In this document: one piece after another, positions 10,527-53,701 of the stretch
Layout of the letters: every line of letters begins with the position of its first letter
How positions within the stretch are numbered: position 1 is the first letter of the stretch
DNA from: a candidate division WOR-3 bacterium
Lineage (GTDB): Bacteria; Hydrothermota; Hydrothermia; JBDRYB01
Reading direction: 5' to 3'
DNA length: 64,000 nucleotides
Assembly: GCA_039803205.1 (NCBI GenBank)
Contig: JBDRYB010000001.1
Span: forward strand, 139,413 to 203,412
Notes under the pieces: model-generated
Told to the model about the DNA's origin: nothing
Database searches by the model: none
What the model saw: only the letters and a program-made list of their open reading frames with translations
Translations under genes and position numbers: made by a program

Positions 10527-12053
10527 TCAGAATCTCAGTATCTTCACGCTATAGGTTCCTCCCGGATGCCTTAGTAGGGCTATGAAAACCCCTCCGGTCT
10601 CAGCTTTGGGGGAAAAGCTATAGCTTCCCCCTTCCAGAACGCCATTGTAGATGTTTCGAACGAGCCTACCGCCCGTGTCATAAAGCGAAAGGGTTATCTC
10701 AAGGCTGGATGGCAGAAAGAGGTATAGGCCGTTTCCTTGGGGCCTGAATTCCAAGTTGGGGCGCCCTTTTACTTCACCAGTGCTCAAAACCTGGCCGCAC
10801 TCAGTGTTGTCCCCGGGGTCATCAAGCGCAAAGAAGGAATATCCGCTGGCATCCGGATGGGTTCCGACCACGATCTCGGCGCATCCATCATCATCTATAT
10901 CAGCGGGAACCGGCGAGTGAACATCCTCGGAGATGGGTTTTTTCCAGAGCAGAGAGCCGTCCCCCGCTCTCAAGCAATAAAGGGTATCGGGGTTAGCGCC
11001 CACATTCGGGACCAGGACCTCAAGCCCACCAACCCCATCCACATCAACGAGGGAAAGAGGGCAGTGAACGGGCTTTGCGGTCGTGAATTCCCATATTTTG
11101 ACCCCGTTTCTGTCCAGGCAATAGACCCTCTTGTCATAGCTCGCTGTTATGACCTCAGGGTAACCATCCCCATCGCAATCCCCGATAGCAGAGGAGGTTA
11201 TTATTATGTCGCCGGCTGTGAAGCTCCACTTCTGGGCTCCATCCGAACCCGCCAGGCAATAGAGCTTTCGGTCCTGAGAGCCTATTACAACCTCCACTCC
11301 TCCATCCTTATCCAGATCCGCAATCGCTGGAGAGCCATCAATCTGGCCCGTGGTCGCGAACTCCCACCTCCTTGTCCCGTCTGAGCCCGAAAGGCAATAG
11401 ACCTTACCATCGTAGCTCCCAAAAACGACCTCCATCATCCCGTCCCCATCGCAATCAGCAACGGCCGGGGATGAGCGCACTGAGCCGCCTGACCTGAATC
11501 TCCATTTTTTCGTGCCGTCTCCTGCTCTGAGGCAATAGAGAACGCTGTCCATGCTCCCTATGAGCACTTCAATCTCCCCGTCCCCGTCGCAATCGGCAAG
11601 GGCCGGAGAGGAATGGGTCTCGGCCCCTGGCGTGGTCTCGGATGACCACTGGAGAACGCCGGAAGCGCCATCAATGCAGAGTATGTATCCATAACCCCCG
11701 ACAACCACCTCCATCTGAGGGTCACCATCCAGCTGGGCTATGGCGGAGGATGAGCTCAGCTGAGCGCTATAAACATAGTATTTCCATTCCTCCGCACCTG
11801 TTGTCCCATCAAAGCAATGCAGATACCTGTCGTAGCTCAGGGCGAGAACCTCGGATTTTCCGTCATTGTCAACATCCCCCACAGCGGAGAACTGCCACTC
11901 AACCCAAGCGTTCGTGGGAAACCTCCACTTTACCACGGGTTCCGTGCTCATCGCGCCCTTCATGGTTTGAAGGGAATGGTGAGCTGGCTCTCCTCCCCAC
12001 ATGGGCCAGGTGCCGTAAACTGCCCCCAGAAGGGCCATTATTAAGTAAGGCAT
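10527..12053 (-). CDS. Secreted FG-GAP/PQQ-like beta-propeller with CTD (class A)
   Basis: SSPA-x-ADxDGDG..EV..GS.D...YCL..DG..KW.F repeats; start ATG 12053 with GGAGG. Confidence 0.85.
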   Translation of the reverse strand: MPYLIMALLGAVYGTWPMWGGEPAHHSLQTMKGAMSTEPVVKWRFPTNAWVEWQFSAVGDVDNDGKSEVLALSYDRYLHCFDGTTGAEEWKYYVYSAQLSSSSAIAQLDGDPQMEVVVGGYGYILCIDGASGVLQWSSETTPGAETHSSPALADCDGDGEIEVLIGSMDSVLYCLRAGDGTKKWRFRSGGSVRSSPAVADCDGDGMMEVVFGSYDGKVYCLSGSDGTRRWEFATTGQIDGSPAIADLDKDGGVEVVIGSQDRKLYCLAGSDGAQKWSFTAGDIIITSSAIGDCDGDGYPEVITASYDKRVYCLDRNGVKIWEFTTAKPVHCPLSLVDVDGVGGLEVLVPNVGANPDTLYCLRAGDGSLLWKKPISEDVHSPVPADIDDDGCAEIVVGTHPDASGYSFFALDDPGDNTECGQVLSTGEVKGRPNLEFRPQGNGLYLFLPSSLEITLSLYDTGGRLVRNIYNGVLEGGSYSFSPKAETGGVFIALLRHPGGTYSVKILRF

Positions 12054-12066
12054 CTCAAAAACCTCC

Positions 12067-13602
12067 CTATCTGAGAACCACTTTAGCCGTTCGCAAACCC
12101 CAAGGGCCTCTGAGAACACCAAGGTAGACCCCTTCTGCCTCAGGCCTTGGGATGAAGGTGTGTCCTCCGGGGCCCAAAGAGCCATTGTAGAGGTTCTGAC
12201 ACAATCGCCCTCCGGCATCGTAAAGCGCGAGGGAGATCTGGACCTCACTTGGAAGGAAGAGGTAAAGCCCGCGGCCTCTGGCTACGAAAAACGGCCCCTT
12301 CGCTTGGGTTTCTTCTTCCAGCTTAAGGGGCCCGCAACCTTGGGTGTTCGCGGGGTCATCAAGAGCGAAAAGGGAGTATCCGCCAGCGTCAGGATGGGTT
12401 CCCACAACTATCTCAATGCATTCATCCCCGTCTATGTCAGCCGGAAAAGGCGAGTGAACATCCGAGACAACCGCCTTCTTCCAGAGAACTGACCCGTTCT
12501 CCGCGTTCAGACAGACCAAGGTATCCGAGAGGGCGTTGGGGACGAGAAACTCAAGCTTGTTGTCCATGTCAACATCCGCCAGCGAGCCAGGGGTGTGAAC
12601 GCTTCCCATCTGGGTCTGATAGAACCACTTCATTGCTCCCCCTGAGCTTATGCAATAGACCCTGCCCTCCGGGTCCGTGTTTCCTATGATGACCTCCATC
12701 TGCCCGTCCCCGTCAACATCAGCAATTGCTGGAGATGACCTCAACGCGCTTCCGGTCGTGAACGCCCACTTCTGGGTTCCGTCTGACCCGCGCAGGCAAT
12801 AGACATTGTTGTCGCAACTGGCTATTATCACCTCCGTGAGCCCATCGCCATCAAGGTCCGCTATGGCAGGAGAACCATAAACATAGTGTCCTGTGTGGAA
12901 TTCCCACTTCTTGGTGCCTGATCCGCTGAGACAATAGACGCTGGAGTCAAGGCTCCCAAAAACAACCTCCATCGCGCCATCCCCGTCGCAATCCCCAACG
13001 GCGGGGGAGCTGAAGATGTAGCCACGGGCATTGAAACGCCACTTCTCAGAGCCATCAGAGCCCCTGAGACAGAAGAATATCCGATCAGCTGTGCCGAAGA
13101 GGACCTCCATGAAACCATCGCGGTCGCAATCAGCAACAGCGGGCGAAGAGTGCACCTGGAGGGTAGTTGCGAACCGCCATTCCTCGGCTCCTGTCCTTGC
13201 ATTTATACAATAAAGCTTGGGATACTCATCCGTGCCTATGAGGACCTCCAGCTCCCCGTCCCCATCGCAATCCGCGACAGTGGCTGAGGCACCTATGGTG
13301 CTGTATGGGTCGCCATCCATGGGAAATATCCAGCGAGGGGTTCCGGTGCTCCCATCCAGGCAATAAAGGTTCCTGTCAAGGCTCGCGGCTATCACCTCTG
13401 GCATCCCATCCCCGTCGCAATCAGCAACAGCCGAAAACTGCCACTCAACCCAGGCGTTCGTTGCGAGCATCCACTTGACAACGGGCTCAGAGCTCATGGC
13501 GCCACGCATGGTTTGGAAACCCGAATTGGAAAGGTCCCCTCCCCACATGGGCCAAAAGCCATAAACGGCACCTAAACAAACGGTTATGGTAAAGCAAAGC
13601 AT
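12067..13602 (-). CDS. Secreted FG-GAP/PQQ-like beta-propeller with CTD (class A)
   Basis: Same repeats and WPMWGG N-terminal motif; start ATG 13602 with GAGGAGG. Confidence 0.85.
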   Translation of the reverse strand: MLCFTITVCLGAVYGFWPMWGGDLSNSGFQTMRGAMSSEPVVKWMLATNAWVEWQFSAVADCDGDGMPEVIAASLDRNLYCLDGSTGTPRWIFPMDGDPYSTIGASATVADCDGDGELEVLIGTDEYPKLYCINARTGAEEWRFATTLQVHSSPAVADCDRDGFMEVLFGTADRIFFCLRGSDGSEKWRFNARGYIFSSPAVGDCDGDGAMEVVFGSLDSSVYCLSGSGTKKWEFHTGHYVYGSPAIADLDGDGLTEVIIASCDNNVYCLRGSDGTQKWAFTTGSALRSSPAIADVDGDGQMEVIIGNTDPEGRVYCISSGGAMKWFYQTQMGSVHTPGSLADVDMDNKLEFLVPNALSDTLVCLNAENGSVLWKKAVVSDVHSPFPADIDGDECIEIVVGTHPDAGGYSLFALDDPANTQGCGPLKLEEETQAKGPFFVARGRGLYLFLPSEVQISLALYDAGGRLCQNLYNGSLGPGGHTFIPRPEAEGVYLGVLRGPWGLRTAKVVLR

Positions 13603-13632: not shown

Positions 13633-13667
13633 ATTATTATGAAAAAATCTCCAAAAAATCTCCAAAT
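13633..13667 (-). promoter_or_regulatory. SARP-type direct-repeat promoter (copy 3)
   Basis: ATCTCCAAA at 13647 and 13658; minus strand TTTGGAGA-TTT-TTTGGAGA then TAATAAT. Confidence 0.7.
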
Positions 13668-13793: not shown

Positions 13794-15362
13794 TCATCTT
13801 ACAACAGCCTTACCCTTAAACCCCTGCCCTCCTGCTATCCAGAAATAGACCCCTTGGCCAAGCGGGAACCAGCTTTTTCCTCGGATCAGTCGCTCAGAAC
13901 ACACGAGCCTGCCATCGCCGGAATAGACCCTGATGTCCGCGTCCTCATGGGATACAAAGAGAAGGCCGCCTGGGAGGGCAGTTGCGGTTATCCAATGTTG
14001 GGAAGGATTGTAGCCTTCCTCAACGCCCTCATAGAGGGCCTCGCAAAAGTTGGCCCTGTGGAGAGGGAGGTCAGAGACCGTCATAGATGCTGTTCTGTCT
14101 GTAACCGTGGGGGTCCAAGGGTTCGTGTTGTCGGTTACGGGAGTTGTGTTGACTGTCGGCACAGCTAAGTCAGGATAGCACGCCGGAACGCAGGCCCCAT
14201 AGCTATGGTTGCCGCTCGGGTCCAGCTTGAGAAGGAGGAGATCCCCTTTGGCCGCTCCCGCGCTCTGGGTCTGGCCAAAGATCGCGTAGCCGCCGTCCGA
14301 GGTTTGGACCACGGAATAGGCTATATCAGAACCAAGGCCTCCGCATGTCCTTGCCCAAACCATGTTCCCTTCAGGGCTGAGCCTAACAACAAAGAAATCG
14401 TCCGAGCCTGTCCCATAACTCGTTGTCTGACCAACGCAAACGAGCCCTCTGTCGGATGTCGGGGCCATTGACCAGAGGAGGTCCTGCCTCCCCCCTACCG
14501 AGCCACCCGCTAGCTTTGCCCAATTTCTCGTCCCATCAGGATTGAGCTTCAAGACGAGGAAATCGTTGTTGCCCGCGCTCGCGAGGGTATAAGCCCCGAC
14601 AAAAACCGTATCTCCAACACATCCTACGGAATAAGCGTAATCCGGAAAACTAGCGACCGTTGACCCAAAAGCCTCTGCCCATTCCCTGGAGCCATCGGAT
14701 CTCATCTTCAACACAAGGATCTCATAAGAACTAACTGAGCCGTAGCTCTTGGTCTCTCCAACGAGCACGAACCCTCCATCGCTGGTCTGAGCTATGGCGC
14801 GCCCTTTTTCGGACCCCGTGCCGCCGAAGGTCTTAGCCCAAACCAAAGACCCATCCGCATTCAGCTTGAGGGCGCAGAAATCCTCAGGGGTGCCAGCCGC
14901 GCTGACTATGAACCCACCGAGAGCGAATCCGCCTTCTGCGGTCCGGATCACCGAGTAGGCTTCCTCCGGTTGGGCCCCTCCGTATGTCTTTGCCCACAGG
15001 AGACCTCCGGAGGAGTTAAGCCTGAGAAGCATGATATCATAGCTGTTGAAGCTCAGGGTGAAACCCGCTATGACAAAACCCCCATCTGATGTCTGAGCTA
15101 TTGAATAACCCCTGTCTCCGCGGTCGTTCACGGTGGGAGAAAATCTCTTCGCCCACAGAACATCCCCGGCCGGGCTCAGCCTTACCGCGATGATGTCCTC
15201 GTATCCCGTGGCCTTTGTGTAACCAGTGAAGGCATACCCACCATCGGATGTCCTGATTAGGGAGCTAGGATAGCCCGTATAATCAGCCGAGTCGCTCCCA
15301 TACATCCAAGCGAAGGTGCTCTGTGAGGTCAAAATCCACGCTAACGCAAAAGCGCTCGTCAT
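13794..15362 (-). CDS. Secreted beta-propeller with W-x-K-T-x-GG repeats, Thr/Pro stalk and short CTD (class B)
   Basis: S-x2-QT-x-DGG(F/Y)..G.T.S.G....D....KL...G...WAKT.GG repeats; ends KGKAVVR. Confidence 0.8.
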   Translation of the reverse strand: MTSAFALAWILTSQSTFAWMYGSDSADYTGYPSSLIRTSDGGYAFTGYTKATGYEDIIAVRLSPAGDVLWAKRFSPTVNDRGDRGYSIAQTSDGGFVIAGFTLSFNSYDIMLLRLNSSGGLLWAKTYGGAQPEEAYSVIRTAEGGFALGGFIVSAAGTPEDFCALKLNADGSLVWAKTFGGTGSEKGRAIAQTSDGGFVLVGETKSYGSVSSYEILVLKMRSDGSREWAEAFGSTVASFPDYAYSVGCVGDTVFVGAYTLASAGNNDFLVLKLNPDGTRNWAKLAGGSVGGRQDLLWSMAPTSDRGLVCVGQTTSYGTGSDDFFVVRLSPEGNMVWARTCGGLGSDIAYSVVQTSDGGYAIFGQTQSAGAAKGDLLLLKLDPSGNHSYGACVPACYPDLAVPTVNTTPVTDNTNPWTPTVTDRTASMTVSDLPLHRANFCEALYEGVEEGYNPSQHWITATALPGGLLFVSHEDADIRVYSGDGRLVCSERLIRGKSWFPLGQGVYFWIAGGQGFKGKAVVR

Positions 15363-15372: not shown

Positions 15373-16881
15373 CTATTTTACGATAAACTTGATGGTTTTT
15401 GTCCCTCCGTTGCACCTGAGAACAGCAAGGTATATCCCTATGGATCGCAATCTTAGAATAAAGGTATGGTCCCCTGCCGAGAGGACCCCCTCATAGAGCC
15501 TCTGGACAGGCCTTCCTTCGGCATCATATAGGACGAGCGAAACCCAAGCGCTTTTCGGGAGGAAGAGTTGTATTCCATTTGGTATTGGTTTCATCTCAAA
15601 TCCACCAGACTCCTCCTGAAACCCTATTGGACTGCATCCCTGGGTGTTGCTGGGGTCATCAAGGGCGTATATCATGCCGAGGTTGTATGTTCCAACCAGG
15701 ACCTCAACGCAGTTATCCCCATCTATGTCAGCTGGAACGGGAGAGTGGACATCCCCGTCCGGGTTGGTAACAAAGAGGCGTCTCCTCCAAAGCGTGGTCC
15801 CGTTTTCAGCGTTCAAGCAAACGAGGGTATCCTTCGTATAGTTGGGCACGAGGAACTCAAGCTTCCCATCGTTATCAATGTCAACGAGCGCTCCTGGGGT
15901 GTGAACCTGGCCAGAACAATAACGGTTCCACCTCTCGGTTCCCGTATGATCAATGCAGTAAACATAGAGATCTTGAGAGCCTATGACGATATCAAGCTTG
16001 CCGTTACCATCAACATCCGCAATAGCAGGGGATCCGCTCACGGCGTTCGCTGTCCAGAATGTCCACTTCTGGGTTCCGTTTGAGCCCCTTATGCAGTGGA
16101 GATAACCATCATGGCTCCCTATTATCACCTCCATCTGGCCATCAGCATCAAGGTCAGCAACCGCCGGGGAGGAACGGACCTCTCCGCTCGTGGAATACAC
16201 CCATTTCTGTGCTCCGGTTTGACCCGAAAGGCAATAGACTTTCCCGTCAAAGCTTCCGAAGATAATCTCATGTTTCCCGTCCCCATCGCAGTCAGCAACA
16301 GCTGGCGATGAGGATACATTCGCGCCCGTGAGGAACTCCCACTTTTTCCCTCCATCTGTGCCCCTTAGGCAGTAGAGCCTATCGTCAAGGCTTCCTATTA
16401 CTACCTCAGTCTTGCCATCGCCATCCACATCCGCCAGAGCAGGAGAGGACATCACGGCGTCGCCTGTGGTATATGCCCACTTTTGGCTCCCGTCCGTGCC
16501 GCGGAGACAATAAACATTGTGGTCATAGCTCCCGAAGACGATCTCTATCTTCCCGTCTCCATCAACATCCCCTGCGGCCGGAGAGGATTGGATGAGGTTC
16601 CCGGTCCCAAACTTCCATTCTAAAGCCCCTGTTATCCCATTAAGGCAATAGAGGGTGTCGTTCCAACTGCCCATTACCACCTCGGCAATACCATCGCCAT
16701 CAACATCCCTCACTGAGGCGAACTGCCATTCAAATGGCCCTGATGTCCCGACGAAGAAATACCACTTTATGACAGGCGTTGTTGTCATGGCGCCGCGCAT
16801 GGTCTGGAAGCTCCTATGGCTAGGTTCACCTCCCCACATGGGCCAGATCCCGTGCACCTGGGCTAAGAGCAAAATCATCAT
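15373..16881 (-). CDS. Secreted FG-GAP/PQQ-like beta-propeller with CTD (class A)
   Basis: Same repeats; SD AGGAGG. Confidence 0.85.
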   Translation of the reverse strand: MMILLLAQVHGIWPMWGGEPSHRSFQTMRGAMTTTPVIKWYFFVGTSGPFEWQFASVRDVDGDGIAEVVMGSWNDTLYCLNGITGALEWKFGTGNLIQSSPAAGDVDGDGKIEIVFGSYDHNVYCLRGTDGSQKWAYTTGDAVMSSPALADVDGDGKTEVVIGSLDDRLYCLRGTDGGKKWEFLTGANVSSSPAVADCDGDGKHEIIFGSFDGKVYCLSGQTGAQKWVYSTSGEVRSSPAVADLDADGQMEVIIGSHDGYLHCIRGSNGTQKWTFWTANAVSGSPAIADVDGNGKLDIVIGSQDLYVYCIDHTGTERWNRYCSGQVHTPGALVDIDNDGKLEFLVPNYTKDTLVCLNAENGTTLWRRRLFVTNPDGDVHSPVPADIDGDNCVEVLVGTYNLGMIYALDDPSNTQGCSPIGFQEESGGFEMKPIPNGIQLFLPKSAWVSLVLYDAEGRPVQRLYEGVLSAGDHTFILRLRSIGIYLAVLRCNGGTKTIKFIVK

Positions 16882-16908: not shown

Positions 16909-16943
16909 ATTTTAAGAGAAAATCTCCAAAAGATCTCCAAAAA
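16909..16943 (-). promoter_or_regulatory. SARP-type direct-repeat promoter (copy 2)
   Basis: ATCTCCAAAA at 16923 and 16934; -10 TAAAAT on the minus strand. Confidence 0.75.
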
Positions 16944-17019: not shown

Positions 17020-18546
17020 TTATCTTATGAGCTTTGCTGTTTTTATTCCTCCTTGATATCTTAGAACACCAAGATAGATGCCGCCAGGCTTTACACCTGG
17101 GATAAATGTGTGCCCCCCTTTGCTCAGAAGCCCATCGTAAAGATCCAAGATCATCTTTCCGCCAACATCGTATAATCTCAAGGATACAATAGCATCGTTG
17201 GAAAGGAAGAGATAAAGCCCATTACCCAAAGCTCGGAACTCAAGCCCTCTCTCAGGCGCACCCTCCATCATATCAACCGGCCCACATCCCTGTGCGTTTC
17301 CGGGATCATCAAGAGCAAATATCCGGTATCCCTGAGCATCGGGATCAAGGGTTCCTACCATAATCTCTATACACCCATCACCGTCTATGTCTCCCGCGAA
17401 TGGGGAATGAACATCATAGGGTAGCGGCTTTTTCCAGAGAAGGGAACCATTCTCTCCGTTCAAACAATAGAGGGTATCCACAGCATTCTTAACATTTGGA
17501 ACCAGAACCTCAAACCGACCGTCACCCTCCACATCCGCGATACACAAGGGCGTATGGATATAGCCTCCCGTGGAATACGACCATTTCTGGGTTCCGTTTG
17601 AGCCTCTTAGACAATAGACCTTCTGATCCCAGCTCCCAACAACAACCTCAATAGCGCCATCGCGGTCCACATCCCCTATAGCGGGCGATGAACGCACGAG
17701 ATAACCGGTTGGGAACAACCATTTCAGTGCTCCGTTTGAACCTGAAAGGCAATAGACCTTATAATCCTCAGAACCAACAATCACCTCCAGGGCTCCGTCA
17801 GCATCAACATCCGCTATTGCTGGAGATGACCATACATAATCCCCTGGCGTAAAAGACCACTTCTCGCTACCATCAGAGCCCCTGAGGCAGTAGATCTTGT
17901 CGCTCCCAACTATGACCTCTTTTGCGCCGTCTCCATCCACATCTGCTGTGGCGGGTGAGGAACGAACATAACTGCTAGTTGCAAAAACCCATTTCTGGGT
18001 TCCATCGGATCCGCGCAGGCAATAGACTTTGCGATCGTCGGAACCAAAAACGACCTCCTTGGCCCCGTCGTTGTCTATGTCTTCCACAACAGGGGAGGAT
18101 TCAACCCAGTTGCCGGTTGGGAAGGCCCACTTCTGCGTCCCGTTTGATCCACGGATGCAATAGAGTTTATTGTCGTTTGAGCCAACTATAACCTCAAGAG
18201 CGCCGTCTCCATCCACATCTTCCACGCAGGGGGATGACTGCACATCGTTTCCTGTGGAAAAAACCCATTTCCCTGTTCCATCGAAGCCCCTGATACAATA
18301 AACCTTGTTGTCCCAGCTCCCCATTATAACCTCTGGTGCTCCGTCGCCATCGCAATCCGCTATGGCCGAACCCTGCCACTCAACCATTCCCTCGCTCGGG
18401 CCGGTCAGGAATCTCCATTTTACGACGGGTTCGGTGCCCATGGCACCGGACATAGATTGAAGGCCCTGATGGCACGGATCGCTCCCCCACATGGGCCATG
18501 AACCATAGTCTGCCCCCATACATACGGCTATGCTAAAATAAAACAT
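17020..18546 (-). CDS. Secreted FG-GAP/PQQ-like beta-propeller with CTD (class A)
   Basis: Same repeats and CTD. Confidence 0.85.
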   Translation of the reverse strand: MFYFSIAVCMGADYGSWPMWGSDPCHQGLQSMSGAMGTEPVVKWRFLTGPSEGMVEWQGSAIADCDGDGAPEVIMGSWDNKVYCIRGFDGTGKWVFSTGNDVQSSPCVEDVDGDGALEVIVGSNDNKLYCIRGSNGTQKWAFPTGNWVESSPVVEDIDNDGAKEVVFGSDDRKVYCLRGSDGTQKWVFATSSYVRSSPATADVDGDGAKEVIVGSDKIYCLRGSDGSEKWSFTPGDYVWSSPAIADVDADGALEVIVGSEDYKVYCLSGSNGALKWLFPTGYLVRSSPAIGDVDRDGAIEVVVGSWDQKVYCLRGSNGTQKWSYSTGGYIHTPLCIADVEGDGRFEVLVPNVKNAVDTLYCLNGENGSLLWKKPLPYDVHSPFAGDIDGDGCIEIMVGTLDPDAQGYRIFALDDPGNAQGCGPVDMMEGAPERGLEFRALGNGLYLFLSNDAIVSLRLYDVGGKMILDLYDGLLSKGGHTFIPGVKPGGIYLGVLRYQGGIKTAKLIR

Positions 18547-45021: not shown

Positions 45022-45027
45022 CAAACC

Positions 45028-46530
45028 TCATCTTACGATGGCTTTCCCTTTGTATGTTGTAACCTGCCACAGGTATACCCCTTGTTCAAGCCCTATACGG
45101 GTTTCGCCCTTCCTGAGTTCCCCTGAGTATACAAGTCTTCCATCTGGTTTATACATCCTTATACTCACCTCCTCTGAGGCGACGAAAACCAATCCACCCG
45201 GGACTGCGTGGCAGGTTATTCCTGGTTTCTGCACCGTGATGCGGTCTTTTAGGTTTAGAGGCGGGCACATATCTGTTATCGTTAAACTAGGAGCAGTTAT
45301 AGATAGGTTTGGAACTGAGATATCTGGAGAGCAAGGCGCCGCCCCTGATACCGAGAATACGCTTATGGAAGGCGTTGAGACGATCGGATTACAAGGGATA
45401 GCGCATCCCGGGTAGTTCCCTGAGGTGTCCAAACTAAAGGCAAAAATGTCAAAGACCCCATCGCCATGTCGGCCTGCTACCGCAAACCCTCCATCATTAT
45501 TTTGGATCACAGAAGATGCGTATTCCCAAATCCCTCCCCCTACGGTTCTACCCCAGGCGACCGAAGCATCTGAGTTCAGCTTGATGAGAAGGGCATCATC
45601 ATTGCCAGCCCCAAAACTCCCTGTGGAGCCGGCCAAAACATAGCCTCCGTCAGCGGTCTGAATCAGGGAATAAGCGTGGTCAAAGGAGGACCCTCCGTAT
45701 GCCTTTGCCCAACTCAGAGAACCATCTGGGTTCAGTTTTAGGAGAAGAGCCTTGGGATAAGTGCCGAAGTTGTAGGATTCCCCTGCTACCATGAGTCCGC
45801 CGTCTGCTGTTTGAGCTATAGAGTATGCGAAATCATTGTAGTCTCCTGTGCTAAATGCCCTCCCCCAGGCGGGCGAGCCGTCCGAGTTCAGCTTCAGAAC
45901 AAAAATATCAAAACCAGTTAAAGAAAAAACCCCGTGGCCAGTCACAGCATATCCGCCGTCCGATGTCTGGATTATGGAGTAAGCAGTGTCAACATAATTA
46001 GTGGCTCCGAAAGTCCTCGCCCAGGCAATTGAGCCGTCAGGGTTCAACCTGAGGATAAGATCACTGCCACTTATATCACCGCCGAAGCTAATTGTGTTGC
46101 CAGCAAGAGCGTAGCCACCGTCTGATGTCTGAGTTAAAGAATGGGCCTCGTCAGAGCTTGTTCCTCCGTATGTCCTGGCCCAGGAGAGGGAACCATCGGG
46201 TTCCAATTTGATGACGAGGAAATCAGAAGCTCCCGCGCCAAAGCTCCTTGTATATCCCCCAACCAGATACCCTTGGTCTGAGGTTTGGATTACCGAGAAA
46301 GCCCTATCATCATCCGGTCCCCCGTATGTCCTGGCCCAGGAGAGGGAACCATCGGGCCCCAGCTTGATGACGAGGAAATCACAATTACCTGCCCCAAAGC
46401 TACTAGTATATCCTGCGATGACATAGCCGCCTTCCGCAGTCGGAGCTATAGAGTAGGCCAAATCCTGACTAGCTCCTCCATAAGTCTTGGCAAAGAGGCT
46501 CTGAAGTATCGTTAGGATTAACCATGTCAT
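45028..46530 (-). CDS. Secreted class B beta-propeller
   Basis: WARTYGG repeats; ends KGKAIVR. Confidence 0.8.
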   Translation of the reverse strand: MTWLILTILQSLFAKTYGGASQDLAYSIAPTAEGGYVIAGYTSSFGAGNCDFLVIKLGPDGSLSWARTYGGPDDDRAFSVIQTSDQGYLVGGYTRSFGAGASDFLVIKLEPDGSLSWARTYGGTSSDEAHSLTQTSDGGYALAGNTISFGGDISGSDLILRLNPDGSIAWARTFGATNYVDTAYSIIQTSDGGYAVTGHGVFSLTGFDIFVLKLNSDGSPAWGRAFSTGDYNDFAYSIAQTADGGLMVAGESYNFGTYPKALLLKLNPDGSLSWAKAYGGSSFDHAYSLIQTADGGYVLAGSTGSFGAGNDDALLIKLNSDASVAWGRTVGGGIWEYASSVIQNNDGGFAVAGRHGDGVFDIFAFSLDTSGNYPGCAIPCNPIVSTPSISVFSVSGAAPCSPDISVPNLSITAPSLTITDMCPPLNLKDRITVQKPGITCHAVPGGLVFVASEEVSIRMYKPDGRLVYSGELRKGETRIGLEQGVYLWQVTTYKGKAIVR

Positions 46531-46564: not shown

Positions 46565-48034
46565 TTACTTCACGATCCCTTTTCCTCTGTATGAACCTGC
46601 CCTCCATATGTAGACTCCCCTTCTGAGATCTATTCTGGTAGAACCCTTACGAATCCTTCCAAAATAAACAAGTCTGCCATCATAGGCATAGAGATCGATC
46701 TCGGATTCTATTACGGATCTGAAAACCAGGCCACCCGGAACTGAGAAGCAGGTAATCGGAGAGAGGGGGGGTTCTGTCTCCCTATCATAAAGAGAAGGGC
46801 AAAGGTCATTGGATACCAGAGAAAGGCTAATAGGACTCATAACCGGATTCCCCACCGAGATAGCCCATGCAGCTGTGGGAACCTGTGGAGAGGAGATATT
46901 TAATGTGGGTTCCATGATGATGGGGTTGCAATCCTGGACACAGCCCTGATAGTCACCGTTAACTCCTATTCTCATAACGATAGCCCGGCTAGATGTGGCA
47001 GAGATGGGGTAACCGCAAATGATGAATCCGGCGGCATTCTGACGGATGGAATATGCCCTTTCTTCGCCTCCGGCTCCAAAAGTCTTAGCCCATTCCAAGC
47101 TCCCGTCCGAAGCCAGTTTCGCGATAATGAAATCCGTGATACCACTACCGAAGCTCTTAGTCCAGCCCGCTGAGGCACACCCCCCATTATCTACTTGCGT
47201 TACTGACCATCCATACTCGTAGTCCGAACCCCCAAGGGTTTTCGCCCAGATCAAGCTCCCGTCAGAAGAGAGCTTGAGGATGGCCATATCGTAACTGCCA
47301 GCACCGTAGGCATTGGTGAATCCTGTTACATAGAGACTGAGATCAAATCCGATATCAACCCCATGGAACTCTAAGCCGTCAAACACTCTAGCCCATTGGG
47401 GGTTGCCATCCCACTGGAGTTTTAGCACTATCCCACCCTGATCCTTGCGCCCCACCACGATATACCCTCCATCCGAGGTCTTAGTAAGGCTGAAACCGTT
47501 TTCGATACCAGCATCACCGTACTGCTTAGCCCACTGAAGAGAACCTGTAGAGTTCATCTTGATAACGGTGATCTGGGGATCCAAAGCCGCGTCCCAGGTG
47601 TATCCCGCTATTACGAGTCCGTTATCCGGGCTCTCAACCAAACCGAAAGCGTAGTCATAACTATTTGTCCCCCCCACTATCCTTGCCCAGCGGAGCGCCC
47701 CGTCTGATCCGAGCTTTAGGACTATGAGATCATATCCTCCGCCAAAACTGTTGGTATACCCGGCTACACCGAAGTCCCCATCGGAACACTCTATTATTGC
47801 CTCTCCTCTGTCATCTCCTGAATCCCCAAAGACATTAGCCCACTCTACACTCCCGTCTTGGGATAGCTTGAATACCAGGAGGTCCCTAGAACCTCCCCAT
47901 GTGGTCGTGTAATTGCCCACAGCGGCATATCCCCCATCAGCGGTAGGGGTTATCCAATTGACTTCTATATGGGGAGGTCCGTATTCCTTAGCCCAAACCC
48001 CAATTAGGATATCCAGGAAAAACCATCCAAGCAT
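46565..48034 (-). CDS. Secreted class B beta-propeller
   Basis: Same repeats; ends RGKGIVK. Confidence 0.8.
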   Translation of the reverse strand: MLGWFFLDILIGVWAKEYGPPHIEVNWITPTADGGYAAVGNYTTTWGGSRDLLVFKLSQDGSVEWANVFGDSGDDRGEAIIECSDGDFGVAGYTNSFGGGYDLIVLKLGSDGALRWARIVGGTNSYDYAFGLVESPDNGLVIAGYTWDAALDPQITVIKMNSTGSLQWAKQYGDAGIENGFSLTKTSDGGYIVVGRKDQGGIVLKLQWDGNPQWARVFDGLEFHGVDIGFDLSLYVTGFTNAYGAGSYDMAILKLSSDGSLIWAKTLGGSDYEYGWSVTQVDNGGCASAGWTKSFGSGITDFIIAKLASDGSLEWAKTFGAGGEERAYSIRQNAAGFIICGYPISATSSRAIVMRIGVNGDYQGCVQDCNPIIMEPTLNISSPQVPTAAWAISVGNPVMSPISLSLVSNDLCPSLYDRETEPPLSPITCFSVPGGLVFRSVIESEIDLYAYDGRLVYFGRIRKGSTRIDLRRGVYIWRAGSYRGKGIVK

Positions 48035-48049: not shown

Positions 48050-49552
48050 TCACCTTACAACTGCTTTACCTTTGTATTGTCCGGATTCCCAAAGATAGAC
48101 TCCCTGGTCCAGGTTTATACGGTTTTCGCCCCTTAGGAGATCACCGCAATAAACGAGCCTCCCATCAGAAGAATATACTCTGAGGCCAGTAGCCATCTGG
48201 CTTATAAAAACGAGACCACCGCTTACAGAAGCGGCTACCACATGGGGCGAGAAATTAAAGGTGTCCTCGCTTGAACCCTCGTAAACAGGGACCGAGGCGC
48301 AGAAATCTGCCTGTGTGGGAGTAACTGGATCGAAGGTAGCGTTATAGTTGTTGGAGGTTATGGATACCGTGGTTGTGGTTATTCCAGGAACATCCTCAAC
48401 GGCTACCACATCGTTCGGGATAAGGGAGGCATCCGACACGCAGTTGGGATATTCCCCGTTTGCCGCTATCTTCATAACAAACATATCCTCATCAGTTGAT
48501 ATACTACCCTTGCCAGCAAAAACCAAGGTCCCGTCCGATGCTTGGATGACATCCCGGAAGTGCCACCATCCAGATGGACTCGCTGGAAACCTCTTTTGCC
48601 ACCTCAATGTCCCGTCCGGCCCTATTCTGAGAGCCACGCCTCCGTTTCCACCCGCCACCACATAGTCACCGCCAGAAAGCTGTATTCCAGAATAACCCCA
48701 CTCATACCCTGAGGTGCCAAAGGATTTCGCCCACTCCAAGGCCCCATCGGAGGCTACCTTCAGAACGAGGATGTCGTTTTGGCCAGCCCCAAAGCTATAT
48801 GTGGTTCCAACGACCAAGAAGCCCCCATCAGAGGTTCCGGTTATGGAATGCCCGGCATCATAATTCGTGCCGCCATAGGTTTTTGCCCAAATTACAGTTC
48901 CATCCGTGCCAACCTTAATCACTATCACATCTCCTTTGGGGTCCCCAAAGCTCTTAGTGTAGCCCGTTATCGCGTAGCCACTGTTATCAACCGCCTTAGC
49001 AACAGAATAGCCATAGTCTTCGCCGCTTCCTCCATAGGCCTTTGTCCAATTTATGCCCCCGCTACTACTGAGTTTCGCGAGCGCGATGTCCCAGTTGTTT
49101 CCGCCGAAGGTACCTGCAACTAGGAAATCGCTAGCCGAACTCTGGATCAGATCCTCGGCATATATGTTGCGATTCGCGAGAGAGTAGGTCTTTATCCACT
49201 GCAAGGATCCGGATGAGCTCACCTTGGCCAAAAGAAAATTCCAATAGAAGAATGGGGATTCTTGCCCGCAAACCAACAAGCTCCCGTCTGAGAGCTGGAG
49301 CACGGATACGGCCCGATGGTTATTCCCGCTCAGCCACCTACACCATTCTCTCGTCCCGTCCTGGCTAAGCTTCAGAAGCATGAGATTCTCAAACCCATTT
49401 GATTCTTCGTATCCTGCTACCGCATATCCGCCATCTGTTGTCTGGATCAATGAAAAGGCCGCTTCGTTCATATACGGGTCCCATCCTTCCCAGCCATATC
49501 CTTTGGACCAAAGAGTCTGGCCCAGCGCAACAAAGATGATTATCCCTGACAT
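48050..49552 (-). CDS. Secreted class B beta-propeller
   Basis: Same repeats; ends KGKAVVR. Confidence 0.8.
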   Translation of the reverse strand: MSGIIIFVALGQTLWSKGYGWEGWDPYMNEAAFSLIQTTDGGYAVAGYEESNGFENLMLLKLSQDGTREWCRWLSGNNHRAVSVLQLSDGSLLVCGQESPFFYWNFLLAKVSSSGSLQWIKTYSLANRNIYAEDLIQSSASDFLVAGTFGGNNWDIALAKLSSSGGINWTKAYGGSGEDYGYSVAKAVDNSGYAITGYTKSFGDPKGDVIVIKVGTDGTVIWAKTYGGTNYDAGHSITGTSDGGFLVVGTTYSFGAGQNDILVLKVASDGALEWAKSFGTSGYEWGYSGIQLSGGDYVVAGGNGGVALRIGPDGTLRWQKRFPASPSGWWHFRDVIQASDGTLVFAGKGSISTDEDMFVMKIAANGEYPNCVSDASLIPNDVVAVEDVPGITTTTVSITSNNYNATFDPVTPTQADFCASVPVYEGSSEDTFNFSPHVVAASVSGGLVFISQMATGLRVYSSDGRLVYCGDLLRGENRINLDQGVYLWESGQYKGKAVVR

Positions 49553-49593: not shown

Positions 49594-49627
49594 ATTTTAC
49601 GGAAGGGTCTAGAACAAAACTAGAACA
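49594..49627 (-). promoter_or_regulatory. SARP-type direct-repeat promoter of locus 2
   Basis: CTAGAACA at 49609 and 49620; minus strand TGTTCTAG-TTT-TGTTCTAG, 9 bp, TAAAAT. Confidence 0.65.
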
Positions 49628-49681
49628 GATCAGCGGCAGAACTTGACTTCGTCTGAAGGTATGCCTTAAAATTAATTTCTC

Positions 49682-51253
49682 ATGGACACATACGAATTGG
49701 TCGCTGATGGACTGAATTTTCTTAGAGACGCCAAGGATTCGGCAATGGTGGAGGATTATCTTCTCTCGTTAAAGGAGGTTGACCCCCTCGCGTGGCTTAT
49801 TTTGAAAGCGAGATACGCGTGTGCGCAATGGAGGAGCGGTGAGGCTTTACAGAAGGGGAGGAGCTTACTCTCAAAGGTCGCTGGCGACGCGCGTCTTACC
49901 GCTTTCCTGTTTAATCTTCTTGGAGTTGCACAGATGCGAACCGGAAATCTCTCGGCGGCCATGGGCTGGTTCTCAAAGGTTCTGGAAATTGATGATCCTG
50001 CGGTGAAAACTGAGGCCATGTCCGCCAGGTTGAACCTCATGGCCTGCAAATTCATGATGGGCGAATATGGATCTCTTTACAGAGACATAGAGCTAGCCAC
50101 CTCAGAATACTCTCTAGGAGACAACCCCAGGATCCGCTTTCTCAGCGCCGCACTCAGGCTGATCCAGGGGGAACCGGAAAAAGCATTCGGTATCCTCAGC
50201 TACCTCAGTGATGAGAAACTATCAATCAGCGAGCGGAATAACGGAATAGAGCTGAAAGGGTTGGTTCTGAGATTCTTGAAAAGGTTCCACGAATCCCGAA
50301 ATGCCTTTATAACTTCTATTCAGGGATATGCCAACTTCGGGAGCGCTTACGCGCCCTTTCCTTGCGCTAAGGCTCTGCAACTGAGCAGGTTTGCTGGCAT
50401 TGAGCCTCCGCCTGTGGCTCTGGTAAGGAAATGTTTAACCCTTGCTAAAAAGGGTGGTTGGAGCGAGCAGGCCGCAGCTCAGGAGGTTAAAGCCCTCCTC
50501 ATAGAGGATGACAGAGAATGCTCCGAGGCCCTGTTTGCCGCAGCTCAAGGATACAGTAGGGCAAATCAACTCTTTGAGGCGTGTCTAACAGGTCTATCAG
50601 CCGCTTACCTGGCCTGGAAAACCGAATCCTCAGTTTTCCCATCAGTTCTGAAGTTTCTTGCTCACCTAGCGCCTTTGCACCCTGGGTTTAAGTGCGATCC
50701 TATTCTGGGGAAGTTCTTTCAAAAAATTGAGCCCCTGCTTTTTGATGAGGGAGGGGAAAACCGCGGTATAAGAGCTTACCTTATTGGTGGGCTGAGGGTA
50801 TATGTTGGCGGTGAGAAAATACACCCCCTGAACTGGCGGTCAAAGCGGGCCGCAAAAGCTCTAATCTATTTACTTCTGTCGCCAAACCACAGGATACCCA
50901 CTGACCACCTTTTCTATCTTCTCTGGCCCAGGAGGGACTATAAGAAGCCTGGGAACAAAGCGCTTCTATACAAAGCGATATACACCATAAGAGAGGCCCT
51001 TGGGGATCGCGCGCTCCTGACAAAGCGCCACGATTTTTACCAGCTAGAGGATGTTTGGACAGACCTGTGTGAGATTGAAAGCCTTATGAGGCTAGCTGAT
51101 ACAGCGCGCGATCCTGCAGAAAAAGAGGAGTATCTCGCCAGAGCACGAAAATTTGCGGGGGGCGAACTCCTCCCTGAGCTTCCATATGACCGGCACATTG
51201 AGGAGTTCAAGGAGCACTATAAAAGGCTGAGGAAAAGGCTTGGCTTGGAGTAA
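49682..51253 (+). CDS. TPR + SARP-type wHTH/BTAD regulator; paralog of 20255
   Basis: Shared GSAYA.FPCAKALQ, KGGW.EQAA, IYLLLSP.HRIP.DHLFYLLWP, FYQLEDVWTDL; promoter TTGACT-18-TAAAAT. Confidence 0.8.
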   Translation: MDTYELVADGLNFLRDAKDSAMVEDYLLSLKEVDPLAWLILKARYACAQWRSGEALQKGRSLLSKVAGDARLTAFLFNLLGVAQMRTGNLSAAMGWFSKVLEIDDPAVKTEAMSARLNLMACKFMMGEYGSLYRDIELATSEYSLGDNPRIRFLSAALRLIQGEPEKAFGILSYLSDEKLSISERNNGIELKGLVLRFLKRFHESRNAFITSIQGYANFGSAYAPFPCAKALQLSRFAGIEPPPVALVRKCLTLAKKGGWSEQAAAQEVKALLIEDDRECSEALFAAAQGYSRANQLFEACLTGLSAAYLAWKTESSVFPSVLKFLAHLAPLHPGFKCDPILGKFFQKIEPLLFDEGGENRGIRAYLIGGLRVYVGGEKIHPLNWRSKRAAKALIYLLLSPNHRIPTDHLFYLLWPRRDYKKPGNKALLYKAIYTIREALGDRALLTKRHDFYQLEDVWTDLCEIESLMRLADTARDPAEKEEYLARARKFAGGELLPELPYDRHIEEFKEHYKRLRKRLGLE

Positions 51254-51341: not shown

Positions 51342-51677
51342 CTAGGGTTTATCATCCGGTTCCGGCCTCTCCTGGGTGAACTGGGGCATGAAACCGATCC
51401 TCTTGCCCTCCTCTTCTCCTGGTATCCTTATCTCGCCAAAACGGGCCTCGTATTTCCTTATGTTGTCCTCTATGGTCCGTAGGAGGAGTTTGGCGTGCTG
51501 GGGAGTCATGATGACCCTCGTCTCAACCTTTACCTTCTGCACGCCGGGCACGACACGGCCGAAGTCAAAAACGAACTCCGATGGGCTGTGGGTTATCAGG
51601 ACGAAATTTGAGTATGTCCCATCCCAAGCGTTTTCCGGAAGCTCAATCTGGAGATGCGGAGGGGGCAAATCCTTCAT
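51342..51677 (-). CDS. DUF3467-family protein
   Basis: GTYSN...THS.SEFVFDF, RVIMTPQHAK, YE.RFGEI. Confidence 0.8.
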   Translation of the reverse strand: MKDLPPPHLQIELPENAWDGTYSNFVLITHSPSEFVFDFGRVVPGVQKVKVETRVIMTPQHAKLLLRTIEDNIRKYEARFGEIRIPGEEEGKRIGFMPQFTQERPEPDDKP

Positions 51678-53701
51678 TTTCTCACCACCTTTGTTGAGAG
51701 CAATCCTCTGCCGCCAAGTTTTAACTCCACGATGTAGAGGCCAGCTGGCGCTCTTGAAAGATCAACCGAAACAGAATTGAGTCCGGGCTTTGTTATGGCT
51801 GATTCGCGGCACACGAGCCTTCCGTCAACTGAGTATGCTTTGAGATCCGCGGGAATGCCGCCGCAGGAGACAAATTCAATCCGGAAGATGTTCCTGGTTG
51901 GGGTTGGCCCCACGGATATGATCCTCGTGGCGATGCGATCCGAAGCGCCCTCGTCTATCCCGATGTGGACGATATGCTCGTCTATGATCCAGTTCTCGGG
52001 GTCAAACTGAAGCGTGGTAGGCTTGCCGGGGAGGGTAATTGAGAAGCCCTGGACATCAAGGCTATCCCAAAGGATGACCGTCGTATCAAGGGTGCCGTCC
52101 CTGAACCTCATGGGGACCGGCATCTTGAATGTCGGAACCCCGTAATCGTGGGACTGGGTCTGTTTTATGAGGACGCCGACCTGCCACATCCCTCCTCCTA
52201 TTGAATCCGCTTCCCAACCCACATCGTATTTAGGGTGCCCTGGCCTGTATAGCCACTCGTCAAAAAACCAGCCCAGGCTGAGGCCAGTGAAAGCCTGGTA
52301 TTCCTGGGTGAAGTCCCTCGTGAGCGCGTAGCTCTCAGCGTGGTTGTTCTTATAGTATCTCAAAGCGGCCCAGAAAGCGAGGGTGTCCCCTCCGAGCAGG
52401 TATTCCGTTATCTTCTTGAGGGAGTGAAGGACGCAACCTGCCTTGTCGTATGTCTCAACCGAGAACAGCTCCTCAAGGCTCTGGCCGGGGTTGTATATGG
52501 GAATAGGGGGCCATGTGTAGTATTGGAGGTAGATCCTCATTCTAACCGAATCAATCCAGTATTGATACATGTTAGGCCCCCAATACCAACCCCACCAGAC
52601 AGCCTCAGAGAAGGTGGCAAAGCCCTCGTTCAGCCATATGTCTGGCCATGTGCCGCATGTCACATAGTCCCCCCACCAGTGGTGGGAGAGCTCGTGGGCC
52701 TGGACCCAAATCGTTCTCAGCGAGTCCCCGTATATGCCGAACCCGGTGAATGTATTTGTCTGGTTCTCCATAGCTCCTCCGAGCTCGTCTATCTGGACCT
52801 GGGAGTATTTCTGATCCATGAAGGGATAAACCCCGTAGAGGGCCGAATAGCCCTCCATTGCCCTTGGAAGGAGCTTGTAGTCCAGCTCCGCGGCCGCTGA
52901 ATCAGCGTGGGATACATAGTGAACGATGGGAAGGGTATCGCCGGCCCAGATGAATGTATCCCGAATGGTAGCGTAATCGTAAGCGGCAAAGACTATGAGA
53001 TATGTGGCTATCTGGCGGTCATTGACCCATCTGTATGTCCACCATGTGAAGTTCTGGACTGAGTCCACGAGAACCCCGTTTGCCACAACACGCCAGCCCG
53101 CTGGAACAGTCGCAGTTATCTCAGACCTCGCCTTCTCGGAAGGAACATCAACGCAAGGAAACCAGTGCCTAGCTCCCCAGGGCTCATCATCAACATAGCA
53201 TATCGTATCCCCTATTGTGAGGCCGCCGGAGGAGATTATGCCCTCAGGATGAGTCGGGGGGCCGTGGTAAAAGACCGATGCCGTGTCTATCCTGCCAGGG
53301 GATGGGTTCGGTATAACGATGTTCAGGATCCTCCCGGTGTCGGAGCCTGAGAGGGACCAAATAGCCGGAGCGCCATCCAGAAGAACCGAATCCACAACAA
53401 GTCCGAGGTTTGGCGTCGCGCTCATTGAATCAACGAAGTTTAGCCTAAGGAAAACGGAATCCTCGGTTATCTGGAACTCCACATCACACCTGGCGTTCAT
53501 TATGCTATCGCCAACCGTGTCTATGGTCAAGTTTATGCTGTATTTGAGGATATCCCAGGGCAAGTCTGGCGGCAGGGTGTCAAGCTCCATTATGCCGAAG
53601 CGCTCCCTAAGGCGCAGTTTCTCATCCATGGCCCGGATCTCGTCTAGGCTTGGGATCCCATCAGGCCATCCGAGCGCAAAGAACAAAATAGCGTTCATCA
53701 T
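51674..53701 (-). CDS. Secreted M1-family aminopeptidase with CTD
   Basis: GAMENQT, HELSHHWWG, WLNEGFA, YDKAG; CTD YSVDGRL..GLYIV..KVVRK; ATG 53701. Confidence 0.9.
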   Translation of the reverse strand: MMNAILFFALGWPDGIPSLDEIRAMDEKLRLRERFGIMELDTLPPDLPWDILKYSINLTIDTVGDSIMNARCDVEFQITEDSVFLRLNFVDSMSATPNLGLVVDSVLLDGAPAIWSLSGSDTGRILNIVIPNPSPGRIDTASVFYHGPPTHPEGIISSGGLTIGDTICYVDDEPWGARHWFPCVDVPSEKARSEITATVPAGWRVVANGVLVDSVQNFTWWTYRWVNDRQIATYLIVFAAYDYATIRDTFIWAGDTLPIVHYVSHADSAAAELDYKLLPRAMEGYSALYGVYPFMDQKYSQVQIDELGGAMENQTNTFTGFGIYGDSLRTIWVQAHELSHHWWGDYVTCGTWPDIWLNEGFATFSEAVWWGWYWGPNMYQYWIDSVRMRIYLQYYTWPPIPIYNPGQSLEELFSVETYDKAGCVLHSLKKITEYLLGGDTLAFWAALRYYKNNHAESYALTRDFTQEYQAFTGLSLGWFFDEWLYRPGHPKYDVGWEADSIGGGMWQVGVLIKQTQSHDYGVPTFKMPVPMRFRDGTLDTTVILWDSLDVQGFSITLPGKPTTLQFDPENWIIDEHIVHIGIDEGASDRIATRIISVGPTPTRNIFRIEFVSCGGIPADLKAYSVDGRLVCRESAITKPGLNSVSVDLSRAPAGLYIVELKLGGRGLLSTKVVRK

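Follow-up and report, generated by a model that had tools for sequence, protein, structure and literature searches.

What controls the arrays of secreted beta-propeller genes carried by an uncultured candidate division WOR-3 bacterium? The 64,000-nucleotide stretch of DNA analyzed here (the window) contains two such arrays, all encoded on the minus strand and each divergent from a gene for a regulator of about 525 amino acids (aa). The same DNA occurs in five sequencing runs, all hot-spring metagenomes from two studies. The genome that includes the window is 2.32 Mb in size and 96% complete, and the names of homologues in the sources point to candidate division WOR-3. We conclude, at a probability of roughly 70%, that cognate pairs of SARP-like regulators and repeat boxes drive the propeller arrays. 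Binding of the regulators to DNA, activation rather than repression, and gating by a ligand are predictions from sequence.

Two classes of propeller make up the arrays. Class A proteins are of FG-GAP/VCBS type (six open reading frames (ORFs) in the window, with FG-GAP_3 matches in Pfam at E 1e-29 to 1e-43) and class B proteins are of DUF5122/delta-60-repeat type (five ORFs in the window by Pfam; all three that were scanned match TIGR02608 of NCBIfam). Pfam assigns five class A proteins and one class B protein to locus 1, and four class B and one class A to locus 2, the same counts as in an earlier note on this DNA. Also as described there, paralogous regulators (20255-21838 and 49682-51253; 42% identity across 523 residues) are divergent from the arrays. 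The genes at the outer ends of the loci as drawn in that note (21825-23651 and 51674-53707) encode M1 peptidases with a type IX secretion system (T9SS) domain, not regulators. Its estimate of about 490-520 aa for the propellers agrees with the lengths of about 489-522 aa obtained from GGAGG-like ribosome binding sites (RBS); three called starts (12248, 13686 and 43380) were too early, and these sites place them at 12053, 13602 and 43308. The genes and promoters of the two loci are listed below (CTD, C-terminal domain; wHTH, winged helix-turn-helix).

10527..12053, minus strand: class A (FG-GAP) propeller with CTD (Pfam; RBS start; CTD alignment)
12067..13602, minus strand: class A (FG-GAP) propeller with CTD (Pfam; RBS start; CTD alignment)
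13647..13665, minus strand: locus-1 box copy 3, TTGGAGAT-N3-TTGGAGAT, 45-63 nt upstream of the corrected start 13602 (exact match)
13794..15362, minus strand: class B (DUF5122/delta-60 repeat) propeller with short CTD (Pfam; TIGR02608; CTD alignment)
15373..16881, minus strand: class A propeller with CTD, 29.2 bits (Pfam; CTD model; alignment)
16922..16940, minus strand: locus-1 box copy 2, then TAAAAT, 61 nt upstream of start 16881 (exact match)
17020..18546, minus strand: class A propeller with CTD, 19 bits, below cut-off (Pfam; CTD model; alignment)
18562..20112, minus strand: class A propeller at the head of array 1, CTD 26.4 bits (Pfam; NCBIfam; alignment)
20143..20174, minus strand: array-1 main promoter, with box TTGGAGAT-N3-TTGGAGAT at 20156-20174 and -10 element TAAGAT at 20143-20148 (sequence)
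20219..20248, plus strand: regulator-1 promoter TTGACC-N18-TAAAAT, ending 6 nt before the GTG start (consensus scan)
20255..21838, plus strand: regulator 1 (P0001, 527 aa), predicted TPR-like sensor with C-terminal SARP-type wHTH and three BTAD helices (AfsR model; homology to regulator 2)
41782..43308, minus strand: class A propeller at the end of array 2, with CTD (Pfam; RBS start; alignment)
43403..44923, minus strand: class B propeller with CTD, 26 bits (Pfam; NCBIfam; CTD model; alignment)
45028..46530, minus strand: class B propeller with CTD (Pfam; alignment)
46565..48034, minus strand: class B propeller with CTD (Pfam; alignment)
48050..49552, minus strand: class B propeller at the head of array 2, with CTD (Pfam; NCBIfam; alignment)
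49594..49627, minus strand: array-2 promoter, with box TGTTCTAG-N3-TGTTCTAG at 49609-49627 and -10 element TAAAAT at 49594-49599 (sequence)
49643..49672, plus strand: regulator-2 promoter TTGACT-N18-TAAAAT, ending 9 nt before the ATG (consensus scan)
49682..51253, plus strand: regulator 2 (P0002, 523 aa), predicted TPR-like sensor 1-355, wHTH 360-460 and three BTAD-like helices 461-519 (AlphaFold2 model; fold searches)

The divergent intergenic regions contain two direct repeats of 7-10 nt with an 11-bp period, oriented toward the propeller gene. In these promoters the repeats are followed after about 6 nt by a TATAAT-like hexamer, and another 20-35 nt separate this hexamer from a GGAGG site, behind which comes the start codon; one promoter (C1 358896) has three repeat copies rather than two. 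According to the available parts of PMC10936776, SARP promoters have direct repeats 11 or 22 bp apart, with the 3' repeat 8 bp away from the -10 element; the SARP box spans 22 bp overlapping the -35 element and is bound by one protomer per repeat, side by side, with the first 8 bp contacted. The sequences of the window's array promoters match this published layout, and the box promoters of the earlier note stand as locus-specific, SARP-style repeats at propeller promoters. The spacer of about 6 nt between box and -10 element is also conserved in many loci, with a consensus near TTCCG before TATAAT (e.g., 49600-49605), and might be touched by polymerase or by the protomer on the downstream side.

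A sigma-70 consensus scan found no -35 hexamer at the window's box promoters, except that the box itself can be read as one (13664-13636). In contrast, both window regulators are preceded by TTGACx-N18-TAAAAT, where the propeller promoters have repeats in the place of the -35 element (two window scans). Throughout the genome, 14 of 19 regulator paralogs have a TTGnnn-N18-TAnnnT promoter that ends 6-13 nt before the start codon fitting the aligned N-terminus (exactly 6 nt in 11). No Shine-Dalgarno site fits in that gap, which argues for leaderless mRNAs; thus, the regulator genes probably have ordinary canonical promoters and leaderless transcripts.

A box promoter without a -35 hexamer would need an activator. 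This bears on the alternative that the regulators are repressors or autoregulators that sit on repeats over the -35 region and spacer and block polymerase until a signal releases them. The box does overlap the place of polymerase binding, and the BTAD helices by which AfsR contacts sigma region 4 and the alpha subunit's CTD (alpha-CTD), as given in the accessible sections of PMC10936776, are missing from the window regulators. A box of another type, GTGTCAG, also lies at the start of a regulator gene (C22_25116) itself, with no -10 element at the usual distance. We nevertheless consider repression quite improbable, given that the two window scans found no -35 hexamer at box promoters besides the box at 13664-13636, and that the position and phasing of the repeats fit SARP-activated promoters as the same source portrays them.

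Is the repeat box specific to propeller genes? A blind detector (an exact 7-mer twice at period 11, then TAnnnT) matched upstream of 16 of the 94 propeller ORFs in the genome and of 9 of 1975 other ORFs (Fisher p 1.3e-16), and several of these nine are further secreted genes in the same arrays. A second detector found 16 of 94 propellers and 9 of 1996 others. Genome-wide there are 46 sites at period 11, compared with 18-20 at periods 8, 10, 13 and 14; periods 9, 12 and 15 are also high, due to coding repeats. When 17 cognate promoters are anchored on the -10 element they share one register, with AG at the same two positions in most.

The core of the repeat differs between loci. The locus-1 core, TTGGAGAT-N3-TTGGAGAT, occurs at exactly three sites in the genome, all within locus 1 (13647-13665, 16922-16940 and 20156-20174), each heading a two-gene unit at 45-65 nt upstream of its first gene. 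The locus-2 core, TGTTCTAG-N3-TGTTCTAG, has a single genome site (49609-49627), before the five-gene array 2. Searched as paired 7-mers (7-mer-N4-7-mer), 15 box types occur one to four times each, at 24 sites in total, 21 of them either upstream of a called same-strand ORF or within its first 62 nt. Because the core differs by locus, each of the approximately 20 regulators would have a private operator and a regulon of one to four promoters.

The pairing of regulator and core is also seen in relatives. Strong matches to a profile of the C-terminal domain were found, among 201 sampled genomes of the phylum, only in the genus of the window (three genomes including this one); 18 other genomes of the phylum have one or two weak matches, mostly in long ORFs. 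In the two sister genomes, which consist of short contigs, six distinct box promoters with this layout were seen next to regulators across the 17 loci covered. Two sister-genome regulators have a clear orthologue in the window's genome with a known box, namely C5_82742 and C16_1567 (66% and 74% identical), and both keep the same box core.

These observations speak to the possibility that the 11-bp repeats have nothing to do with the regulators and are chance occurrences, sites of another factor, or phase-variable spacers that change in copy number. The three copies at C1 358896 indicate that copy number can differ. The enrichment at propeller promoters, the fixed register relative to the -10 element, the distinct core beside each regulator (with one to four genome sites per core) and the recurrence of a core next to the orthologue of its regulator in two sister genomes leave this explanation very improbable indeed. 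Variants in contigs of four DNA runs over 9000-21900 are strain-level single-nucleotide polymorphisms (SNPs) in runs X3 and X4; no 11-bp gain or loss is listed at any box, although contigs hide rare variants. Four SNPs and one 1-nt deletion in 20113-20254 miss the box, numbers too small to argue conservation. The numerous joints in this contig comparison come from paralogs matching one another at 85% likeness.

Two further observations concern individual box types. GTGTCAG-N4-GTGTCAG has four dispersed sites (10493-10510 in the window, C2:125042-125059, C8:3955-3972 and C22:26736-26753), and the reversed control pattern has none. Three of the sites precede secreted genes and the fourth is that at the start of C22_25116. 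Both sister genomes carry orthologues of C22_25116 and two or three GTGTCAG sites. Judged by their sequences, these sites may form a small dispersed regulon that is controlled in trans and includes an autoregulatory site. Next to regulator C16_1567, the box (C16:1505, at the very start of contig 16) is of the same type as those at C38:616 and C38:6133, both of which precede secreted genes; contigs 16 and 38 are probably neighbours in the genome.

The earlier note described the system as present twice, which is true of the window only. We identified 20 regulator paralogs in the genome, 19 of them full-length and one a more distant protein of 610 aa, plus one fragment. Profiles built from the window proteins identified 94 propeller ORFs (34 class A and 60 class B) among 2101 ORFs. 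A propeller is the immediate divergent neighbour of 14 of the 20 regulators, more than chance would give, and is directly adjacent to 15. The other five comprise one at a contig edge, one in tandem behind a regulator, two that face weaker propeller-like or CTD proteins, and one with a small ORF in between. For 52 of the 94 propellers, a regulator is found within two genes. Thus, the linkage of homologs to secreted arrays, proposed in the earlier note as a neighbourhood check, is found in this genome and also among relatives. The most divergent paralog, the 610-aa P0232 (C2:136629-138461), sits between two class B propellers; no 11-bp repeat box was seen by eye beside it.

What kind of protein are the regulators? 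An AlphaFold2 model of regulator 2, based on an alignment of 59 homologues (pLDDT 93.8, pTM 0.70), shows helical repeats at 1-355, a short linker, a winged helix at 360-460 and three further helices at 461-519. In this model the SARP-type module (residues ~357-522 of 523) is C-terminal. When folded separately (pLDDT 76.7), the last 172 residues gave VIA-align Z scores of 13.8 and 13.5 to AfsR (8jke, 8hvr) and 13.1 to EmbR (2fez), with 156-162 residues aligned. The next-best match has Z 7.9, and the lower matches (Z 5.4-7.9) are OmpR/PhoB-type effector domains aligned over about 90 residues; AfsR and EmbR are the only entries that match along the full 156-172 residues. The top six Foldseek matches are AfsR or EmbR only (E 3e-5 to 3e-4), and the AfsR/EmbR match is also found in the full-length model (Z 15.0-15.2). 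For regulator 1, residues 359-511 align to residues 23-175 of the NCBIfam AfsR model (E 0.0028).

As described in those parts of PMC10936776 that were available, residues 25-111 of AfsR form its DNA-binding domain, against which helices 1-3 of the seven-helix BTA domain (120-270) pack. In that account, sigma region 4 sits on BTA helices 3-7, the alpha-CTD is contacted by residues 240-263, and the SARP domain is monomeric when off DNA. On the model, the window regulators keep the SARP DNA-binding core without most of the activation surface. The C-terminal wHTH plus BTAD of the earlier note therefore holds for the SARP-type wHTH and the start of the BTAD (AlphaFold2 and fold searches), but only three of the seven BTAD helices are present and Pfam BTAD gives no match. 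In an alignment of 19 paralogs, column entropy is lowest in wHTH helix 2 (0.65), is 1.88 in the loop before the recognition helix and 1.64 in the recognition helix, and is highest in the first 220 residues of the sensor (2.05). This pattern fits diverging DNA specificity together with diverging inputs.

The model also agrees with the TPR-like N-terminal region, lacking Walker motifs and a receiver domain, that the earlier note had read from the letters. The helical repeat of regulator 2 starts at residue 1, and neither Pfam nor the model gave an NTPase (AAA, NB-ARC or Walker), a receiver or a membrane segment in either window regulator. In Pfam, TPR matches of the window regulators are below cut-off, and a phmmer search of regulator 1 against the PDB returned only designed helical repeats.

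The closest structures to the N-terminal domain include MalT domain III (1hz4, 317 residues aligned, Z 22.1), phage Rap with peptide (21.4), AimR (17.2), NprR with NprX (16.0) and PlcR with PapR (13.0), along with eukaryotic TPR scaffolds. Structural neighbours in the Atlas are MalT/LAL regulators (TM 0.73-0.80), with TPR_MalT over the aligned part (TM 0.77). The TPR_MalT model of Pfam gives no match to the window proteins, and helical repeats score high in general. One possibility keeps the layout proposed here but has the TPR domain bind, in place of a small metabolite, a partner protein or a signalling peptide imported into the cell, in the manner of Rap, NprR, PlcR and AimR. The scores to those four proteins are in its favour, as are a weak Pfam AimR match in the 610-aa paralog (E 8e-4) and the secreted M1 aminopeptidases that adjoin both window regulators. 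We regard such input as unlikely: MalT domain III fits equally well and the Atlas neighbours are MalT/LAL regulators, an M1 peptidase adjoins only 2 of the 20 regulators, and the genes downstream of the 20 regulators vary between loci, so that no conserved small peptide gene stands at the usual position (no systematic search of small ORFs was made).

Several results weigh against the conclusion that SARP-like regulator and box pairs drive the arrays. By sequence, the C-terminal assignment is faint: Trans_reg_C on the tail of regulator 2 has E 0.043, below threshold, Pfam BTAD (PF03704) has no match at E<=10 in either window regulator, and a family profile searched against the PDB matched TPR proteins only, with AfsR matched solely through its TPR part. 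The alignment to AfsR ends at its residue 184. The surfaces by which AfsR meets sigma region 4 and the alpha-CTD are missing, so any activation must depart in some way from the AfsR mechanism. Because helical-repeat matches inflate Z, the likeness to MalT and Rap indicates a sensor-like fold and not the ligand. Only the 16 propellers noted above, of 94, have a detectable box, 42 of the 94 are not near any regulator, and no box was found for regulators C4_122769 and C2_136596. On the supporting side, a Mantel test over 17 pairs shows the boxes diverging along with the wHTH (r 0.28, p 0.009) and not with the TPR region, tail or whole protein; against it, five regions were tested without correction, and the correlation for the recognition helix only is not significant (r 0.10, p 0.16). 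None of the five runs with this DNA is an RNA run.

Under the preferred reading of cognate regulator and box pairs, each locus would be a self-contained regulatory cassette. The regulator would be a cytoplasmic one-component protein, made from a canonical, probably constitutive, leaderless promoter and composed of a MalT/Rap-like TPR sensor (~355 residues) and a C-terminal SARP-type winged helix. A signal would switch the sensor on, and two protomers would then bind side by side on the two 11-bp direct repeats, which occupy the -35 region of the divergent neighbour promoter and leave a gap of about 6 nt to its -10 element. The bound regulator would recruit RNA polymerase, leading to transcription of a short operon of beta-propellers, and the proteins would be exported by the type IX system. 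Regulator 1 would drive three two-gene units via three identical boxes, and regulator 2 one five-gene unit. More tentatively, and at odds somewhat short of even, the approximately 20 mutually orthogonal activator and operator pairs could have arisen within a genus of thermophilic WOR-3 bacteria from one SARP-like ancestor, each with a sensor domain and a propeller cassette of its own, and form a combinatorial switchboard that adjusts the exported and surface proteome to one signal after another, activating by a non-AfsR mechanism. In such a switchboard, the N-terminal TPR domain would perhaps take over the lost contacts to sigma region 4 and the alpha-CTD.

The route by which the propellers leave the cell is indicated by their C-termini. 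The last 85 residues of all 12 array proteins (the 11 propellers and the product of 9017-10456, described below) align with each other and have the typical T9SS CTD pattern. The earlier note saw a CTD on all 11 propellers; the alignment includes all of them, and the cut-off of the hidden Markov models (HMMs) Por_Secre_tail/TIGR04183 is passed in 3 of the 11, as well as in both M1 peptidases and the 9017 gene, with a fourth propeller at 19 bits. The CTD of class B proteins is shorter, and four of the five do not reach the HMM cut-off. Genome-wide there are 147 matches to the T9SS CTD model, and an SprA homologue of 1883 aa was identified (396.6 bits against a cut-off of 200; SprA was the one component of the T9SS machinery searched). 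Thus, we infer that a type IX secretion system is present in this genome. The propeller N-termini are short and hydrophobic (12-20 residues, judged by eye). No recognised catalytic domain was found in the propeller cargo, which may serve in binding or degrading extracellular substrates, or in adhesion.

How widespread is this type of regulator? Searched against 1.84 billion representative proteins, the C-terminal profile gave 4036 matches at E<=1e-3, 27 of them at E<=1e-30. These 27 are mostly proteins of ~520 aa that carry the domain at their C-terminus, along with a few shorter fragments. The next tier (586-630 aa, E 1e-18 to 1e-24), to which P0232 belongs, has TPR plus a BTAD above the Pfam cut-off in the three proteins scanned, one of which also has Trans_reg_C; P0232 has a full BTAD (48.9 bits, above the Pfam cut-off). 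Further relatives of 940-1160 aa combine AAA/STAND, MalT-like TPR, Trans_reg_C and BTAD, and there is also a REC-containing form. The C-terminal placement of the SARP module, which the earlier note considered unusual, thus has parallels in metagenomes, where TPR + wHTH + full BTAD, STAND + TPR + SARP and REC...SARP forms exist. From these sequences, a C-terminal SARP module is common in uncultured bacteria, and the window family looks like a short form without the ATPase (if it was ever present) and the distal BTAD.

With SARPs such as AfsR, ActII-ORF4, DnrI, RedD and EmbR, the window regulators share the OmpR-type wHTH, against which the first BTAD helices pack, and target promoters in which direct repeats of 11-bp period lie a few nt before the -10 element and replace the -35. 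They differ in that the module is C-terminal, whereas it is N-terminal in all published classes covered by the available portion of a 2024 review (PMC10972967). That portion of the review describes N-terminal SARP architectures only and states that SARPs are "exclusively found in actinobacteria". Also different here are the three of seven BTAD helices, without the "chair" for sigma region 4 and the alpha-CTD surface, the N-terminal TPR sensor without an NB-ARC/NOD ATPase, the WOR-3 host in place of an actinobacterium, the T9SS-secreted propellers as targets in place of biosynthetic clusters, and the approximately 20 paralogs with private boxes in one 2.3-Mb genome.

Other known systems share individual features. 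Like MalT/LAL (STAND) regulators, the proteins have the sensor first and the DNA-binding domain last, and their N-terminal 355 residues superpose on MalT domain III; unlike them, they have no NTPase domain, and the output is a SARP/OmpR-type winged helix rather than a LuxR/GerE HTH. The metagenomic TPR + wHTH + full-BTAD proteins (~600-630 aa, including P0232) have the same domain order but keep a BTAD above the Pfam cut-off, and we found no study of them in the literature. RRNPP proteins (Rap, NprR, PlcR, AimR), which occur in Firmicutes and their phages, likewise join a DNA-binding domain to a cytoplasmic TPR sensor that is similar in size and curvature. Their HTH is N-terminal and of XRE type, unlike the C-terminal wHTH here, and no cognate peptide gene was found beside the regulators, small ORFs not having been searched systematically. 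Polysaccharide utilisation loci of Bacteroidota, whose dedicated regulators are hybrid two-component systems, SusR, and ECF sigma/anti-sigma pairs, offer an analogy in that many paralogous loci each combine one sensor-regulator with genes for surface or secreted proteins; the loci described here have other regulator families, no SusC/SusD pair and propeller cargo.

The earlier note did not recognise this arrangement as described, and our literature search likewise found no description of such a system, nor of WOR-3 tied to type IX secretion, SARPs or propeller arrays. In the main text of two papers on WOR-3 genomes and isolates (PMC12542636, PMC12285271), T9SS, secretion, SARP, propeller and adhes- are absent. 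Among the SARP papers listed, none appears from its entry to describe a SARP outside Actinobacteria.

Other features lie within or beside the two arrays.

9017..10456, minus strand: secreted protein with T9SS C-terminal sorting domain, closing array 1 (Pfam Por_Secre_tail 26 bits; TIGR04183 33 bits; 35.8 bits in the genome CTD scan; ATG start by RBS)
10493..10510, minus strand: box of GTGTCAG type, two copies at 11-bp period, then TAAAAT (exact-pattern count)
21825..23651, minus strand: M1 peptidase with T9SS CTD, convergent with regulator 1, membership in the system uncertain (Pfam)
44963..45030, minus strand: strong hairpin (folding, -38.3 kcal/mol, z -4.5; matched by none of 200 shuffles)
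51674..53707, minus strand: M1 peptidase with T9SS CTD, convergent with regulator 2, membership in the system uncertain (Pfam; CTD model)

The gene at 9017-10456 is the seventh co-oriented secreted gene of array 1 and has its own promoter with a different box type; its neighbours in the Atlas are Por_Secre_tail clusters without exception. A MoxR-type AAA ATPase (7954-9015; AAA_3, E 1e-62) is encoded on the opposite strand and ends one base before it, with a weaker match (E 4e-10) to the model "MoxR of MoxR-vWA-beta-propeller ternary systems". The hairpin at 44963-45030 has a 15-bp GC-rich stem directly behind the stop codon of 45028-46530, and its loop contains CACCUCC, the anti-Shine-Dalgarno motif. 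Also present is a small DUF3467 gene (111 aa, E 2e-26; 51342-51677, minus strand) between regulator 2 and the M1 peptidase. Array 2 is flanked by 39779-41749 and 55928-57895: a TonB-dependent receptor and, at a greater distance, a GH18 glycoside hydrolase that combines Golvesin_C with a weak T9SS tail (19 bits).

Could the two loci be recent duplicates? The two window M1 peptidases are 30% identical and the two regulators only 42%, and we rejected a recent duplication. Because the peptidases share so little identity, the synteny of regulator and M1 peptidase is old; such a peptidase with a T9SS domain neighbours only 2 of the 20 regulators, and there are three in the genome. The nearest paralog of each window propeller, except 10527-12248, lies outside its own array (37-62% identity). 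We found no gene conversion between the tails of the two window regulators, the sole other nucleotide match of at least 78% identity being 67 nt long.

If the proposed pairing is true, SARP-type activation would reach beyond Actinobacteria and antibiotic clusters, to type IX cargo in a little-studied phylum. The approximately 20 natural regulator and box pairs, with their relatives, would constitute a data set for the recognition code of OmpR/SARP winged helices, and a possible source of orthogonal, thermostable activator and promoter parts. The truncated BTAD raises the question of which polymerase contacts activation needs. Given that propellers account for 94 of about 2100 ORFs, their control would be central to the dealings of these cells with their surroundings.

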